Shown here piece by piece: positions 27,001 through 33,000 of a stretch of 51,299 bases of DNA (within the stretch, counting starts at the first letter, position 1; each line of letters starts with the position of its first letter). The position numbers are program-made. Location: the IMG/VR virus record IMGVR_UViG_641522650_000003. One strand, given 5' to 3'. Source of the stretch: a virus. Lineage: Duplodnaviria; Heunggongvirae; Uroviricota; Caudoviricetes.

Positions 27001-30000
27001 GCATTCCTGCTGGCGTATTCTCAATACCGGCACCGATACCCGCAATATAAAGGCGTCCGTCCTGCATCTGCTGCAGTTTCACGGCCCACATGCTGTTCAG
27101 GTTATTATTTGTATCAACCTGAACTTTCTGTATCTGCTGGATTGCCGCACTCTGATTTTCCAGTTTTTTATTGACGGTCTGCGTGATTTCATTGCTGACA
27201 TTCGTAATGGACGTCCTGATTTCAGCCAGGTCCGGTGCAAGCTGACCGTTATCAATCTGCGTCCACAGCTCCTGGGCCAGATGTGTTTTCCCGATTTCTC
27301 CTTTGAAAAAATCCAGGTAACCTTCCACATCATCGCTCGCCCGACCGACAGCCTCCACGAATGCCGATTTGCCAACAGTATTCACACTGCGGATATAAAA
27401 ATAATAATCATGGCCCGGTTTGATATTGATACTGGCAGCTATCCAGTACAGCGCCGAGCCAAGATAGCGGGCTGCGGTTTCAACCTGCCTGATATCCGCA
27501 ATCCGCTTTTCCGAGAACCAGAACTCAAACTGTACCGTCGGGTCATAAACGGCAAGATGTGGCGTTGCGGTTATCTGAAAATAGCCCGGCGTCAGCTCAA
27601 TCCGCGACGGTGCTGCCGGTGCGGCAATCCGGAAGGTGGTGGTGGCCGGTTCGCCCTGCTGGCCATAACTGTTAATTGCCCTGACTGTCAGGGTGTATTC
27701 CCCGAGCGGCAGACCACTGAAACGATGCTCTGTATCCGCAGTGATAGCGGTGGTCACCAGACGGCTGTCTTCTCCGCTTCCGCTGGTCAGTCGCAGACTG
27801 AAGCGCACCCCCTTCACCACCCGCGGCGTGTCCCATTTCGCCTGTGCCAGATACTGGCCGTCAGCTGCGCTCACCTCCACCGTCAGGTGCTGCACTGCCG
27901 GTGGGATGACGCTGTTCAGGGAGCCTGACTGCGGCTCAAAGCGGGCACCGTTATCCACGATGGCTTCTTTTTCCGGTACGTGCTGCACCGCCGTGATGGC
28001 AAAGGTGCCGTCCGTGTTTTCCCGGACGGAGACACAGCGGAACAGGCGACGGCGCAGTGACGGCAGGGAGAGTCCCCACACCCCGTATGTCTCCACACCA
28101 TCAGGCAGGGTACTGACCTGTATCCGGTCCGGCGCGGGGTGTGCGGTGATGTCCACACTCACCGGCTTACCGCTGCCGTTAATCAGGTTCACCGCCGATG
28201 TACCTGTCTCCGGCAGGGTAACCTCACGGTCCAGCGTCAGGGTGCGGGTGGCAGCATCAATGGACAGGACACGTCCACCGGTCAGGGTCCCGGCATAGTC
28301 ATTATCACAGATTTCAATAATGTCACCGGGTGTGTGCCGCAGCCCCTGAGACCCGAGCGTGAAGTCCACCGTCTGCGTTTCCAGCAGTTCGGTCTTTATC
28401 ACCCACAGTCCGGCACGGTGGGCCTGACCGCGGCTGGTACAGCCGAACGCGTCCATCTTCAGCAGATTGCGCCCGTAGCGCAGTATGGCTTCCGGGTCTT
28501 CCACCAGTTCCGTGGAGGTCTGCCAGCCGTTCTGCGGGTCGGTGTAATTCACCTCCACCGCCGTGTGCCGGTCCTTCAGGGCACTGAAGCTGTAGCGGAA
28601 CCCCACGCCGTTATCATCCACCACCACATCGCTGTTGGTGTACGGCCACACCACATCCGACAGGCGGTCCTGAACAAACGTCAGCATCTGGCCGTTCCAT
28701 ACCGGCATACAGCGCATCGCAGAGCAGAAATCACTGAGAACGTCCCACGCCTTACGCTGTTGTGCCAGGTACGCATTAAAGGTCATCCGCGGCTCGGTCC
28801 CCCCGAAACCATCCGGGACCGTCTGGTCGCAGTACTGCCCGATGGCATACAGCGCCCACTTGTCCACATCCGCCGCCCCCAGACGTTTTCCCATGCCGTA
28901 GCGCGGGTGAGTCAGCATGTCCCACAGGCACCAGGCCGGGTTGTTGCTGTATGCCGGTTTCAGACTGCCGTCCCAGATACCACTGTACGTGCGTTTTTCC
29001 GGGTCATAGTTTGACGGCACCTGGATGATGCGACCGCGGATATGGTAGTTCACCGTCATCTGCTGACCACCAAACTGCTCCGCATCCACCTGCATCCCCA
29101 CAATGGCCGTGTTCGGGTAGCACTGTTTCACATCGATGATTTCGGTGTATGACGACCACAGCGTTCTGTTCTGCAGCTGGTCCGTGGTGCTGTCCGCCGT
29201 CTCCCTGACCATCCGGATGTTAAAGGGGCGGGGAGGCAGATTATCCAGAATCACCGAGGCCAGGAACTGTGAGGTGGTCTTGCCGTTAATGGTGACGTCC
29301 TTTTCCGTCACCCAGCGGCCATTACGCTGTAACTGAATCAGAATCCGGACAGAGGAAGGATTACGGTCGCCCTTTGACGTGGTCTGCACCAGTGACTGCA
29401 CCCCGAAGGTAACCCGCAGGCGGTCAATGTTCGCGGACGTAATGGTGCGCGTCACCGGTTTTGCCTTCGTCACTTCCACGCCCAGTCCGGTTTCAGCTCC
29501 GGAGGACTCAAAGCCTTCCGGTGGTGTCTGCTCCTGCTCCCCGGCACGCCAGACCGCGGTCACACCGTGTATCACGGGATTGCCGTCCGTGTCCGTCAGT
29601 GGGGTTTTGTTCACCAGAATACTCTGCAGTCCCTTCACCGGACCTTCTATCGGTCCCTCACCAATCGCATCAATCACACTCATCATCTGCGTGGATTTGA
29701 GATTATCCTTCGCCTCACGAGGCGTGTGTGCCTTACCGCCACCTTTTCCCATACAGCCTTCCCCTGAATAAATTAACCGCCACTTGCCATTCCGTACAGA
29801 AGTCGGATATCCTTCGCCCGAAAAGCATGAAACACATTTCTGCCATGCTAAAGAAAACCCCGGTATCAGCAGATACCGGGGTTTTCTTTCATGCCCACCG
29901 ATAATCCTGTTGGTTAAAACCGGTAATGGCATAAAAATTCTGAATATCTTCACATTTTCACACACTGACTGTGGCGCTTATAATTTCGCTGCGTTAGTGT

Positions 30001-33000
30001 TTTTTTGCCCGAGTAACAAAAACAACTCCTTCACATTGATCTTCATTTGTCTGTCCCCGCAGCTCCGCGATCACTGCGGGATTTTTTTATGTTTTATCCC
30101 TGTCGCCCGATAACCACGACCTTTCCGCCCCCGCCTTCATCACGGGTGCTGATGTCCTGGGATATACGGCGGGAGCCAACCAGCATTTCCCCGTAAGGCA
30201 CCGGCATCGGGTTCCCCTGGGCAATCATGTTATCCAGCGAGGAAAAGTACGTGTTCTGTCTGCCGTTATCCGTTGCGCGGTAATCCGGTGTTTTTGCCTT
30301 CGGGGCCAGCATCTGGGCCACACCGCCCAGAATCATGCTGGCTCCAAGTGAAAACAGCATCGTGGTGGCAGAAAAACCACCGGCTGCCAGGGCTGAACCC
30401 CATAACGCCATTGATGCCCCGGCAGTGAAGAAAGAGCCCACGATGGCTGCCGCCCCCAACACAATCTGCAGTCCACCCTTTCCGGCCCCGGCCAGTCGCG
30501 GCACAATGTGGATGACCGTTCCCTCACCCAGCTGTTCGTGAAGACGGGCATACACCGCCTCCGGTGCCGTGTCATCACCGGCAATACGTATCTGGTACCA
30601 GCCTTCGTTCATCTGACGGCGAAAGCCCGGCATCTGCATCGACAGGGCGCGAATGGCTTCCGCTGCCGTGTTCACATACAGGCTGAGGCGGCGGCCAAAT
30701 CGTTGCAAATCCCCGTGAAGGCAGATGGTGAAGCAGCTCACCGTTGCCGCAGTAAATGGTGGCATGGTTCGGTACCGAAGCACCAAAGCAGCACAGCAGA
30801 ATATCGCCCGGCTGTGCAGAGGACAGGGGCACCCGGTAAAAGCCGGTGACCGCCATATTGTCCAGGTACAGGTTCTGGCCGTTGCGCCACCAGTCATCCT
30901 CGCGATGAAAATCCGGCATATCAATTCCCGCCAGATGGTATGCATCCCGGAACAGCGTGTAACAGTCCGTCACCCCGTGCTCAAAGCGCCGTCCTGTCAG
31001 ATGTGGCACACAGCGGAATTTATGAATTTCCCCCCGGCAGACCAGCCACCAGGGCAGTGCGCTTTTTATCTGCAGCCGCCGGTCAGCCTCGCTCAGCCAG
31101 GGCAGCTCACCGGGATGACTGTGGACCAGTGCCACAATCTCCCCCTGCATCTCTGCCCGCAGCCAGTCTTCCGGTGCGATACGAAAATACGCCTCCGGCT
31201 CTGCAGAAATATTCACACAAGGGATATACCGCTCCCCCTCCGGCGTGCTTATCACGAAGCCGCACGACTCCGCAGGCGCACACCGCCGGGCATGCGCCAG
31301 AATCGCTGATTCAGTCTGTGTCATAAACCGGGATTTACTGCGAAAGTTTATTAATGGAAAGGAAACCGCCAAAATTGCCGACATTCCTGCGCAGTTCACA
31401 CCCGCGCATGCACTTGCTGCATCTGTCCTTACGGATATCCGTGGTGGGTTTATCGAACTCATCCGCCACAGCCCCGCCCGTGTAACCACACTCATCAGAG
31501 CGGTAGGTCCACATACAGGTGTTCGCCAGCATGATACGATCGGGAAACAGCGCCCCGTCCGTCTCGGTCGGTGTAGCCAGCACAAACGAGGCCGTCATGG
31601 CTGTCAGCTGCGACATCTGCTCCACCACCCAGCGGTCACTCAGCTCCTGCTCCGGGTCCGCCTCCGGATTGCCCGCAACGAAATTCACCGCATCCAGAAA
31701 ACGGGCATACACCCGGCGGCGGACCACCGTGGCCCCCACCAGACTCTGCAGGTCTTCCGCCATCCCGGTGACCAGACCGAACAGATTGGACACCGTCAGC
31801 GACGGTCTGGCACTGCTGCCCCGGCCGTTCATCTCAAAGCCGCTGCCGTCAATCGGGTATGCCTCATACTTACGCCCCTGCCAGGTGACCGGCTCCCCTT
31901 TTTCATTCAGCTCATTACAGAAAAAATACCGCTCACCACCCTGCACCGTCAGGTCGATTTCCCAGAGTACCACCCGCGGTGACTGCTCTGACTTAACCGA
32001 CTCGTTCAGCCTTTCTTCGCGAATATCCTGCATCAGTTCACCACCTGCTTAAACTCCGCGCTGAACTCAACGCGCAACATCCCGACCCGCGCAGACCACC
32101 CGGCACAGGTCACCTTTATCTGCCGGTATGCATAAGGCGGTGTCCACAGAAACGCCTTCCAGCCACCGTGCTCTGCCAGGAATTCCTCCAGATGCCGGGC
32201 TTCCTCCCGGGTCACGGAAAGCGTCACCCGGTATGTTTTCAGGTCAGCACTCAGCCCTGCCGCCATACGCTGCGAATAGCCGTCACCAAAACGCACTTCA
32301 CGCACCGATGGCCGCGAGTTCACCTCCATATCCGGTTTCACTTTCCAGCGAAAGGTTTTCATCGCCCGCTCCCCGATAACAGACCGCCATCACGCAACTG
32401 CAGCCGGAGCTCATCCTGCGCACCTTTACGGGCCATCTCATACACCGCTTTCATCAGCTGCGGCCCTGCCTGCCCGTTGGGGCCGTCGTTCTGAATCACC
32501 ACGTGATTGTTCTGATTAAAATTAATGCCTTCGGCCCGCCGCATCTGCGCCGGACTTCCGGCACCGCCGACATAACCACCTTCCGCATACCCGCGCATCA
32601 GACGATACAGGTTGCCGACACCAATCCGGCTGGTCGCCTCCTTCGTGAAGACAAACTCCCCGCGATGGACAATCCCCGCAGGCTCATATTTGCCGCCCGT
32701 CCCCGTAAATCCTCCGGTCGCGAAATGGAAGTTCGCCGCCGCAGCCTGAATGGCCGTCCCCGTGGAAGCGGATGCGCCACCACCGAAAGCACCACCAATG
32801 GCGCTGCCGATACGCCCGACAATCCCCACCATCGCCTGCTTCAGAAAAATCTCTGTCAGCATGGAGAGCACGGAACGGGTGAAACCACGCCAGTTCTGTT
32901 CGCTGCCGGTCAGCATCGCCGCCATATTCTGTGCAATACCGTCAAAGGTCTGCGTGGCCACACTTTTTACCTGCGAAAAACTGTCCGTCGCACTTTCCGC

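Follow-up and report, generated by a model that had tools for sequence, protein, structure and literature searches.

A probable pasB small RNA gene antisense to the tail operon in the spacer between prophage tail genes I and J

The spacer between tail genes I and J

Here, we describe the spacer that separates the tail genes I and J on the minus strand of the window, i.e., the whole 51.3-kb stretch of lambdoid prophage DNA that was analyzed. Because J starts with the ATG at 29752 and the stop codon of I occupies 30094-30096, the spacer comprises 341 bp, in agreement with the ~340 bp reported in an earlier sequence-only reading of this DNA. In lambda, the same two genes are separated by only 60 bp (I ends at 15444, J starts at 15505), which bears out the ~60 bp that this reading had given. 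The lambda spacer also contains a hairpin with A/T runs at its sides shortly upstream of J (AAACCGCC-CGCA-GGCGGTTT) but has neither a promoter nor an sRNA. RefSeq annotates no features in the spacer. An alternative upstream start of gene I, at 30774, is given in the annotation of phage ASU11.

On the plus strand, the I-proximal part of the spacer has the layout of an sRNA gene (Table 1): a promoter is followed by a body of ~50 nt that lacks structure and by a Rho-independent terminator ending in a U tail. We assign this unit to the sRNA PasB below. The promoter is a near-consensus sigma-70 promoter that matches the consensus at 11 of 12 positions, and it is the sole match of at least 11/12 on either strand of the window. 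In 12 divergent loci, ATAAT of the -10 element is invariant and the -35 element is kept as TTCACA or TTTGCA. The terminator stem is GC-rich and pairs 30056-30062 with 30074-30080 (7 bp), followed by an A and seven T at 30082-30088. The sequence-only reading had recognized both elements but misplaced them: the promoter was put at 29967-29994, which is 10 nt too high, and the hairpin with its T-run at 30046-30080 instead of 30056-30088. Among 33 unique spacers retrieved via the I protein, with conservation scored for each alignment column as the share of sequence pairs that are identical, the values are 0.99-1.0 for the terminator stems and 0.96 for the U tail. When 38 alleles are folded to a consensus, the terminator is the only structure and the body is unpaired; because the stems are invariant, no covariation can be counted.

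Table 1. Positions of the genes and sequence features in and around the I-J spacer of the window
Feature	Position	Strand	Description	Basis
Gene J	26279..29752	-	Tail tip / host specificity	Translation start; homologues annotated gpJ
I-J spacer	29753..30093		Intergenic spacer of the tail operon, 341 bp	ORF list and sequence
Hairpin 1	29850..29889		Perfect 18-bp stem, 4-nt loop, A/T runs at the sides	Folding
Imperfect hairpin	29889..29934	- (tail-operon strand)	Directly abuts hairpin 1	-16.0 kcal/mol, z -3.0
PasB promoter	29957..29984	+	-35 TTCACA (29957-29962), 16-nt spacer, -10 TATAAT (29979-29984)	Promoter scan
Predicted 5' leader	29991..30005	+	GCGUUAGUGUUUUUU; inferred start to published PasB 5' end	Start inferred from -10 position
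PasB sRNA	30006..30088	+	83 nt, as annotated in E2348/69	Sequence identity
Candidate seed	30024..30035	+	PasB nt 19-30 (AACUCCUUCACA), anti-Shine-Dalgarno-like	Duplex energies with RIL-seq targets
GAUCUUC motif	30038..30044	+	Most conserved unpaired motif across alleles	Score 0.93, 33 unique spacers
PasB terminator	30056..30088	+	Rho-independent; CCCGCAG/CUGCGGG stem, 11-nt loop, seven U	Folding
Gene I	30094..30675	-	Tail assembly	Homologue annotation

Correspondence to PasB and the element upstream of it

PasB (pathogenicity-associated sRNA B) was described in EPEC O127:H6 strain E2348/69, where it is encoded by prophage PP6 (Pearl Mizrahi et al. 2021, Sci Adv, PMC8550237), and is also covered by a preprint (Zhu, Shabalina and Storz 2026, bioRxiv 10.64898/2026.05.13.724894). 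The assignment of the plus-strand unit to PasB builds on the following observations. First, window positions 30006-30088 (+) are identical at 83/83 positions to NC_011601.1 1466343..1466261 in PP6, and the identity of the window to PP6 is 100% from 29933 to beyond the I stop, including promoter and terminator. Nucleotide 27 of the RNA is a C, as in the E2348/69 PasB allele and not as in PasB-2. Second, the published Northern probe AATCCCGCAGTGATCGCGGAGCT is, by sequence match, the exact reverse complement of 30058-30080. Third, PP6 PasB likewise lies between the I and J homologues on the opposite strand, and length, strand and flanks agree with Table S6 of PMC8550237; in the window, PasB runs antisense to the tail operon, and 5 nt separate its 3' end from the I stop. 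Altogether, these matches support 29957-30088 (+) as the pasB gene with a probability of roughly 0.88, judged from sequence and with expression data that come from E2348/69 rather than from this prophage. The unit is accordingly already known and not new, and the sequence-only reading was right in its guess of a plus-strand RNA of ~80 nt, which matches the 83-nt PasB base for base.

In E2348/69, PasB was detected by RNA-seq and Northern blot, its stability depends on Hfq, and it is present in Hfq RIL-seq chimeras (PMC8550237). An RNA of ~83 nt accumulates and is more abundant under growth conditions that do not activate virulence (PMC8550237). Supplementary Table S2 gives log2 fold changes for pasB of -6.8 (activating) and -2.4 (non-activating) (PMC8550237). 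PasB has 37 RIL-seq interactions, nearly always as the 3' partner of the chimeras, and the mRNAs ligated to it on Hfq include ler, perB, bfpB, bfpI, ftsZ and galE (PMC8550237). Because Rfam 15 holds no PasB model, it provides no independent covariance support. Reading of the raw sequence alone recovered a regulatory RNA that has been confirmed by experiment but is still lacking from Rfam and from genome annotation, i.e., RefSeq and phage records.

The published 5' end of PasB, which derives from RNA-seq coverage (PMC8550237), corresponds to 30006 and lies ~15 nt downstream of the start predicted from the promoter (~29991), i.e., 21-22 nt past the -10 hexamer as compared to the usual 6-8 nt; this offset is new here. 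It reflects processing of the 5' end, imprecise mapping or the use of another promoter. Among the 33 unique spacers, conservation of the segment TTCKCTGCGTTA is scored at 0.85.

The window and PP6 differ between the promoter and J, where the two sequences are unrelated: in the window, this segment measures ~195 bp and contains the 18-bp hairpin, and in PP6 it measures ~93 bp and contains another hairpin. The two prophages also reside in different hosts, and the RNA is demonstrated in E2348/69 and known here by its sequence. Hairpin 1 has fold energies of -30.9 (plus strand) and -32.1 kcal/mol (minus strand; z-scores of -8.5 and -6.9, respectively; 0/200 shuffles fold equally well), and because A/T runs lie on both sides, it is bidirectional in form. 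The sequence-only reading had described a perfect bidirectional terminator hairpin at 29853-29888; the hairpin and its perfect 18-bp stem are real, and its boundaries are 29850 and 29889. Because an extra G bulges the left arm in 3/3 aligned relatives, the more common variant is not the one with the perfect stem. Together with the abutting imperfect hairpin, the minus strand from 29935 to 29849 folds with -46.4 kcal/mol (z -9.0), and the equivalent place in lambda and in PP6 also has a hairpin. Because hairpin 1 lies upstream of the PasB promoter, it does not belong to the PasB unit. It is a separate element of the J-proximal part of the spacer, and its probable role is to serve the transcript of the tail operon or to insulate the PasB promoter.

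That a hairpin is found just upstream of J in lambda, PP6 and the window, and that the PasB terminator read on the operon strand is a hairpin directly after the I stop, would also fit a scenario in which all these features do no more than punctuate the tail operon, as terminators or as hairpins for RNA stability, and in which the promoter match arose by chance. However, sequence identical to the right half of the spacer gives rise to a discrete, Hfq-dependent RNA on Northern blots (PMC8550237), and the promoter hexamers are kept in divergent alleles. As an account of the spacer, we therefore regard punctuation as highly improbable; for 29957-30088 it is already contradicted by the published Northern and RIL-seq data, and for hairpin 1 alone it is the best available reading.

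The spacer contains ORFs on both strands, and some depositors have annotated hypothetical proteins there, raising the question of a small protein encoded by the 109-aa plus-strand ORF (29784-30113), by a minus-strand ORF of 60-66 aa (a hypothetical protein in ASU11) or by short ORFs opposite the sRNA (1720a-02, PhiR12_1). The 109-aa ORF exists and runs through both hairpins, as the sequence-only reading had stated; the ORFs cross both terminator hairpins, no spacer ORF has a PHROGs family, and RefSeq annotates none of them. Moreover, the alleles differ by indels of 1, 2, 4 and 5 nt, i.e., not multiples of three, and the minus-strand ORF of the window is out of frame, by a 1-nt indel, with that of relatives that are otherwise identical over the stretch. 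Thus, the spacers of related phages yielded no conserved small protein, the preference of the sequence-only reading for a non-coding RNA is upheld by these frame-breaking indels and the lack of protein family matches, and a coding function is scarcely credible.

Candidate seed and modes of action

Three observations on duplex energies point to PasB nt 19-30 as a candidate seed. First, six of the six RIL-seq target fragments contain a site complementary to nt 19-30, with energies of -13.3 to -16.4 kcal/mol. Second, in sliding windows the energies peak at nt 19-30, where the mean of the six targets lies 7.2 standard errors below the controls. Third, for nt 17-32 the targets average -14.9 kcal/mol as compared to -9.1 ± 3.05 kcal/mol for 45 control start regions (Mann-Whitney p = 1e-4), these being simple duplex energies that contain no accessibility term, for six target fragments of ~150 to 340 nt and controls of a fixed 250 nt. 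The predicted target sites lie within the RIL-seq read-start span or at most ~17 nt downstream of it. The candidate seed contains C27, the nucleotide that differs between PasB and PasB-2, and body nt ~26-32 vary between alleles (score 0.57-0.82). By contrast, Zhu et al. propose from conservation a seed just upstream of the terminator (bioRxiv 10.64898/2026.05.13.724894), a position that differs from nt 19-30. The GAUCUUC motif falls in the region proposed by these authors. The nt 19-30 seed and the complementarity to the six fragments are new here, and this candidate, including the polymorphic C27, provides a concrete and directly testable seed hypothesis.

We suggest that PasB would be a classical trans-acting sRNA that pairs with its targets in dependence on Hfq, in which the terminator hairpin and U tail would bind the proximal face of Hfq and the unpaired nt 19-30 would pair with purine-rich GUGAAGGAG-like target sites. 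Through PasB, a prophage of EPEC is connected with mRNAs of the host and of virulence genes (ler, per, bfp, ftsZ, galE); the host of the window may lack several of the targets described in E2348/69 (LEE, bfp and per genes).

Alternatively, PasB could act as an anti-sRNA or sponge in the manner of AgvB, with its CA-rich 5' part (AACAAAAACAAC, nt 10-21) mimicking targets of the GU-rich GcvB R1 seed and titrating GcvB or another core sRNA. AgvB and AsxR of EHEC prophages (Tree et al. 2014, PMC4104026; RF02702, RF02703) resemble PasB in being short Hfq-binding prophage sRNAs that lie antisense to late genes in a slot tolerating extra DNA and that belong to a family whose terminator region is conserved and whose targeting region varies (PMC4104026); the variable 5' region of AgvB contains CACAACA, the consensus of GcvB targets (PMC4104026), the allele of the window is CA-rich at 30015-30026, and one chimera with an sRNA region, the pasA IGR with pasB, was reported (PMC8550237). 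However, AgvB and AsxR are 51-60 nt long, occupy a moron slot downstream of pR'/Q rather than the space between tail genes I and J, and show no sequence or model similarity to the window: RF02702 and RF02703, which model a conserved 3' region of ~42 nt, gave no gathering-threshold hit in the window and none at E up to 10 in 29650-30200. They sponge core sRNAs, a function that is putative for PasB. In addition, the CA-rich run is allele specific, with AUAAGAAUAAU in its place in other alleles; windows covering nt 5-22 have no excess complementarity to the RIL-seq partners; and no gcvB-pasB pair is among the activating-condition entries examined in Table S3 (PMC8550237). Sponging is, therefore, very unlikely.

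The position of PasB suggests a further mode, in which it acts mainly or additionally in cis, either by directing cleavage of the polycistronic I-J mRNA or by transcriptional interference that damps read-through into J, thereby tuning the tail tip or silencing J in the lysogen. PasB lies wholly inside the spacer and has perfect complementarity to this part of the late tail mRNA; its promoter, very strong on paper, is oriented head-on to late transcription; the module occupies exactly the same place in every close I homologue examined; and a hairpin always lies between the module and J. On the other hand, PasB was discovered through chimeras with unlinked mRNAs and needs Hfq, both typical of trans-acting sRNAs (PMC8550237), and among the activating-condition RIL-seq partners examined, none is an I-J or tail-gene chimera (PMC8550237). 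Moreover, a lysogen has no late mRNA, lambda tails assemble without such an RNA, and neither PMC8550237 nor bioRxiv 10.64898/2026.05.13.724894 discusses an antisense role. Action in cis is rather unlikely, and trans-acting base pairing is the reading that we prefer.

Distribution, alleles and the J-proximal segment

The module of promoter, RNA and terminator is conserved beyond chance, being present in 147 phage records and in 1612/5426 complete E. coli genomes; because this corresponds to ~30% of these genomes, annotation of PasB is useful. In IMG/VR, at least 120 contigs carry the module, as do 77/77 measurable spacers that follow an I protein with 96% or more identity to that of the window. 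Comparison of I-J spacers across lambdoid prophages, as the sequence-only reading had advised, revealed that the sRNA module is kept, that it exists in divergent alleles and that the J-side segment is variable.

The divergent alleles, present in more than 130 Stx phage records, are new here. They occur in Stx1, Stx2a and Stx2c converting phages and in other lambdoid prophages and share with the window the promoter core, the I-J position, the initially transcribed GCGUUA, the U run, the UCCUU and AAUCUUC motifs and the CCCGCAG/CUGCGGG terminator; by contrast, the RNA body is only ~55-75% conserved and contains indels. Zhu et al. reported 24 PasB phage hits with a filter of more than 75% query coverage (bioRxiv 10.64898/2026.05.13.724894), as compared to the 147 records matched here; most divergent alleles fall below that filter.

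It is conceivable, albeit speculative, that the I-J spacer of this group of lambdoid prophages is a dedicated sRNA cassette slot in which a fixed promoter and terminator frame a phage-specific targeting segment (at least three deep allele groups plus C27A in the candidate seed), so that every prophage would supply a regulator with its own targets. As it lies antisense to the late I-J junction, this RNA might in addition influence the expression of J or the production of tails upon induction.

Also new here is that the segment from the PasB promoter to J is a variable slot, occupied by hairpins, sodC, an IS element or a second sRNA-like module. Prophage sodC, encoding a Cu,Zn superoxide dismutase, lies in the same spacer between J and a PasB-type promoter and on the PasB strand; it is a protein-coding insertion of ~0.6 kb, whereas the window has at this place a hairpin module with no sequence similarity to it.

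Identity of the small RNA gene between tail genes I and J

Here, we identify the candidate sRNA in the I-J spacer of the tail operon as PasB, the 83-nt sRNA of prophage PP6 of EPEC E2348/69. PasB was described at NC_011601.1 1466343..1466261 (minus strand, 83 nt), flanked by E2348C_1436 and E2348C_1437, and was detected with the Northern probe AATCCCGCAGTGATCGCGGAGCT (Table S6, Pearl Mizrahi 2021, PMC8550237). Several lines of evidence support this assignment. First, the published coordinates correspond to window 30006-30088, in which 83 of 83 positions are identical, and the alignment of the window with the E2348/69 locus is identical from 29933 to beyond the I stop. 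Second, at the E2348/69 locus PasB is flanked by tail assembly gene I and gpJ and runs opposite to both; the tail genes of the window are on the minus strand and the predicted RNA is on the plus strand. Third, window 30058-30080 is matched in full by the reverse complement of the Northern probe. Fourth, position 27 distinguishes PasB from its commoner variant PasB-2 (Zhu, Shabalina and Storz 2026, bioRxiv 10.64898/2026.05.13.724894); the window has C at this position, as does E2348/69, while the most frequent close variant among the sampled loci has A. Because of the full identity and the C at position 27, the candidate sRNA is, judged by its sequence, PasB itself, and the feature is already known under this name. 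On every testable criterion, i.e., sequence, synteny, strand, probe match and terminator, the predicted RNA belongs to the PasB family.

The sequence-only reading had proposed an sRNA of ~80 nt on the plus strand opposite the tail operon, in good agreement with PasB, and had put the spacer at ~340 bp, close to its measured length (Table). The ~60 bp given there for lambda is also correct, lambda I ending at 15444 and J starting at 15505 with a gap of 60 bp. By contrast, the positions of its three elements had to be corrected: the TTCACA/16/TATAAT promoter is present, but 29967-29994 is 10 nt too far right; the perfect stem of the bidirectional hairpin is real, but not at 29853-29888; and the terminator with its T-run is real, but not at 30046-30080. 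With these corrections, the observation is confirmed and its interpretation as an sRNA gene supported.

Features of the I-J spacer, in window coordinates
Feature	Coordinates	Strand	Description
J start	ATG at 29752	-	ORF list and sequence
I stop codon	30094-30096	-	ORF list and sequence
I-J spacer	29753-30093, 341 bp		between J ATG and I stop
Hairpin 1	29850-29889	both strands folded	perfect 18-bp stem, 4-nt loop, A/T runs on either side
Second hairpin, imperfect	29934-29889	-	directly upstream of hairpin 1 on the minus strand
PasB promoter	29957-29984	+	TTCACA, 16-nt spacer, TATAAT
PasB terminator	stem 30056-30062/30074-30080, then seven T 30082-30088	+	

The locus is covered by no curated Rfam family. 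The Rfam check suggested in the sequence-only reading returned 0 matches for the whole window (Rfam 15, gathering thresholds), and a scan of 29650-30200 with permissive settings yielded nothing but weak matches, driven by the terminator and far under gathering scores. A full-text literature search with the terminator or probe sequence found no paper, and the supplements of Tree et al. (PMC4104026) yielded no usable entry for an EcOnc sRNA in the tail region. AgvB, AsxR, STnc100, IsrG and IS009-type elements are reported neighbours of Pas sRNA genes in other genomes; none of these five was found in window 1-51299, nor were tRNA genes, and no second copy of the PasB module was found across the window.

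Promoter, 5' end and the J-proximal slot

The PasB promoter is the sole σ70 match of at least 11/12 in the 51.3-kb window when both strands are scanned. Its -10 hexamer ends at 29984, so that transcription is expected to start near 29991 and to give an RNA of ~98 nt. The published 5' end, which was derived from RNA-seq coverage, is at window 30006 (PMC8550237), and the leader between the two positions, GCGUUAGUGUUUUUU, is conserved. The two likeliest explanations are trimming of the primary transcript in the U run and an imprecise end call from the coverage; an alternative -10 element, TAGTGT at 29995-30000, is a weak candidate.

BLAST matches of the spacer to phage records divide it into two halves. 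The entire spacer is found at 99.4% identity in just 13 records, mostly prophages named PPompW (integrated at ompW), while the right half (29928-30093), with promoter, RNA and terminator, matches ~130 further records, mainly Stx-converting phages, at 77-98% identity. The left half does not resemble those of the sodC type or the PP6 type and is missing from other PasB-bearing phages; in all full-length carriers fetched it is at least 97.8% identical, and its substitution pattern is, therefore, uninformative on function. Hairpin 1 lies in this half, upstream of the PasB promoter and outside the sRNA. It folds with -30.9 kcal/mol on the plus strand (z -8.5) and -32.1 kcal/mol on the minus strand (z -6.9); the very stable unit that it forms with the adjacent second hairpin on the minus strand (29849-29935) folds with -46.4 kcal/mol (z -9.0). 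Hairpin 1 may act as a terminator, an RNA-stability element or an insulator; no minus-strand promoter for a divergent small RNA ending at this hairpin reached the scan threshold.

The J-to-promoter distance was compared among 132 loci. Two types prevail: ~190-195 bp as in the window (64 loci) and ~92-108 bp as in PP6 and Stx phages (60 loci), in which the hairpin is a different one, ACAGGCACC...GGGTGCCTGT. Single loci have 148 bp, 571 bp and 1456 bp, the last (L031) with an inserted IS element that has transposase ORFs of 103 and 225 aa, and three loci (L015, L049 and L062) have ~280 bp with a second, tandem sRNA-like module. In this module, possibly a paralogous sRNA gene, the sequence upstream of the promoter (TTCTGAAATTCTTCACATTT) recurs, the body differs and includes AACUCCUUAAGG, and a separate terminator is present (CTCCCG...CGGGAGCGTTTTTT). 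For five loci no J start was assigned; these include three with truncated sequence, and L012, with ~0.8 kb that includes sodC (162-689) on the PasB strand. Among the 77 spacers retrieved through the I protein, six contain sodC; this Cu,Zn superoxide dismutase gene, again on the PasB strand, is seen in L185-L188, L204 and L210, with I-J spacers of 848-851 bp. Since sodC lies between J and a PasB-type promoter, the spacer is a slot for protein-coding extra genes too. The PasB module is found between the pre-J hairpin and the I stop codon; the segment next to J serves as a slot for extra DNA.

The lambda I-J spacer (15445-15504; 746-805 in locus L136) has an A/T-flanked hairpin, AAACCGCC-CGCA-GGCGGTTT, shortly before J, and the pre-J hairpins of lambda, PP6 and the window occupy an equivalent place with unrelated sequences. 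Because lambda also has such a hairpin, structure before J appears to be common to tail operons, and a structured element at this place seems to be a general feature of these operons.

The perfect stem of hairpin 1 is an unusual form. In all three relatives aligned (ASU11, 55989 and WCHEC000837), the left arm has an extra, bulging G (AAAGAGAAACCCC...). The corresponding 1-nt deletion in the window makes the stem perfect and joins a 71-codon upstream ORF (GTG 29965) in frame with J (26279-29965, minus strand); the missing G may be a true variant or an error in sequencing. This indel also bears on the idea that the spacer encodes a small protein, as it changes the frame between near-identical relatives. 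Moreover, indels among alleles are not multiples of three, the spacer ORFs run across both hairpins and have no PHROGs family, and RefSeq annotates nothing in the spacer. A small protein is, therefore, very unlikely, and the preference of the sequence-only reading for a non-coding RNA holds.

Candidate seed and proposed mode of action of PasB

In RIL-seq chimeras, sRNAs usually occupy the 3' position. PasB, which ranks with the best-connected sRNAs of the accessory genome in Hfq RIL-seq of E2348/69, has 37 interactions and is nearly always the 3' partner; its size was confirmed by Northern blot, its stability is Hfq-dependent and its level is higher under the non-activating condition (PMC8550237). 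Table S2 lists pasB with a log2 fold change of -6.8 for the activating and -2.4 for the non-activating condition, and the activating-condition entries name bfpB, bfpI, ftsZ, galE, ler, perB, rplX and a fragment adjoining pasA as partners (PMC8550237).

The anatomy of PasB would fit a classical Hfq sRNA that acts in trans. Across 38 unique alleles, the consensus fold holds the terminator hairpin alone, and the body is, therefore, taken to be unpaired. Covariation among these alleles was not countable, the stems of the terminator, the sole predicted structure, being invariant. The 83-nt and 98-nt forms fold no more stably than shuffled sequences (z ~-0.7), and a 5' hairpin seen only in the 98-nt form is unsupported.

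Full-length duplexes between PasB nt 1-52 (counted from the published 5' end) and targets were long, implausible and no better than shuffles, and were replaced by sliding windows with controls. Twelve-nucleotide PasB windows were compared with six chimera-giving mRNA regions and 150 control fragments. Excess complementarity was restricted to nt 13-34 with a peak at nt 19-30, AACUCCUUCACA, for which the target mean was -13.5 kcal/mol and the control mean -8.05 kcal/mol, i.e., 7.2 standard errors below controls, for six targets of ~150-340 nt against controls fixed at 250 nt and with duplex energies that contain no accessibility terms. With nt 17-32 as the query, a site was found in all six targets: ler (UUGUGAAGGAC, -13.9 kcal/mol), ftsZ (UUGAAGGUGUUGA, -13.3 kcal/mol), galE (CGUGAGGGGGAUGUU, -16.4 kcal/mol), perB (CGAUGGAAGGAGG, -14.5 kcal/mol), bfpI (UUGUGAUGGAGUG, -14.8 kcal/mol) and bfpB (AGUGGAGGGGUG, -16.3 kcal/mol), compared to -9.1 ± 3.05 kcal/mol for controls (45 ORF-start regions of the window; Mann-Whitney p = 1e-4). 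Every predicted site is inside the RIL-seq read-start span or at most ~17 nt downstream of it. We hypothesize that nt 19-30 are the PasB seed. This motif resembles an anti-Shine-Dalgarno sequence; because the predicted sites fall within coding regions, we claim no regulatory direction for PasB. The polymorphic C27 falls inside the candidate seed and is opposite a G in the predicted ler pairing, and PasB and PasB-2 may, therefore, differ in their targets. The candidate seed is not the one proposed from conservation; among unpaired motifs, GAUCUUC at nt 33-39 is conserved best, scoring 0.93 when conservation is expressed as the fraction of sequence pairs that agree in an alignment column.

A CA-rich run at PasB nt 10-21 suggests an AgvB-like sponge of GcvB, and AgvB and AsxR are, like PasB, short Hfq-binding prophage RNAs opposite late genes. 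However, the run is allele-specific and has no excess complementarity to the RIL-seq partners, the Rfam models of AgvB and AsxR do not match the window, and AgvB and AsxR are located downstream of Q, where the PasB locus is not. A phrase search of the RIL-seq tables, in which tab-separated cells may escape such a search, returned no gcvB-pasB pairs. Action in cis, by antisense pairing or interference at the late I-J junction, is a less probable reading. It is compatible with all observations and would account for the fixed place of the module beside all 77 close I homologues examined, but lambda does without a PasB-type module.

Distribution of the PasB module and host of the window

Among 5426 complete E. 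coli genomes, 1612 have a megablast match to the spacer and 1445 match at least 80% of it, with a median of one copy per genome and a maximum of six. Previously, 1,158 PasB matches were reported in complete genomes, often as the sole Pas sRNA of the genome, as were 24 PasB phage hits with stricter filters; the words promoter, transcription start and antisense are absent from the main text of that study (Zhu 2026, 10.64898/2026.05.13.724894). The promoter pattern also occurs in at least 120 IMG/VR contigs. When each species was represented by a single genome, the pattern was found in E. albertii and one Streptomyces-labelled contig only, an undercount as the exact promoter was required. The latter (NZ_JBHTEB010000006.1, 3408 bp, labelled Streptomyces flavalbus; L014) has a PasB-like module and 58.6% G+C, and is probably contamination from an Escherichia phage.

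Our modest additions are the promoter, whose predicted start disagrees with the published 5' end; a seed proposal derived from the targets, which includes position 27; the variable slot by J; and, in over 130 Stx phage records, deeply divergent alleles of the PasB cassette. The remaining value lies in annotation of the locus and in testable questions on the seed, the 5' end and antisense action.

The host of the window may be a divergent Escherichia lineage. The prophage of the window is not at ompW. Window 3934-23592 matches chromosomal genes of the yeh/metG/apbC region with only ~96% identity to the best of the 5426 E. coli genomes, and the tail region (21111-42065) resembles the ompW prophage of strain 55989 as a mosaic with 88-98% identity.
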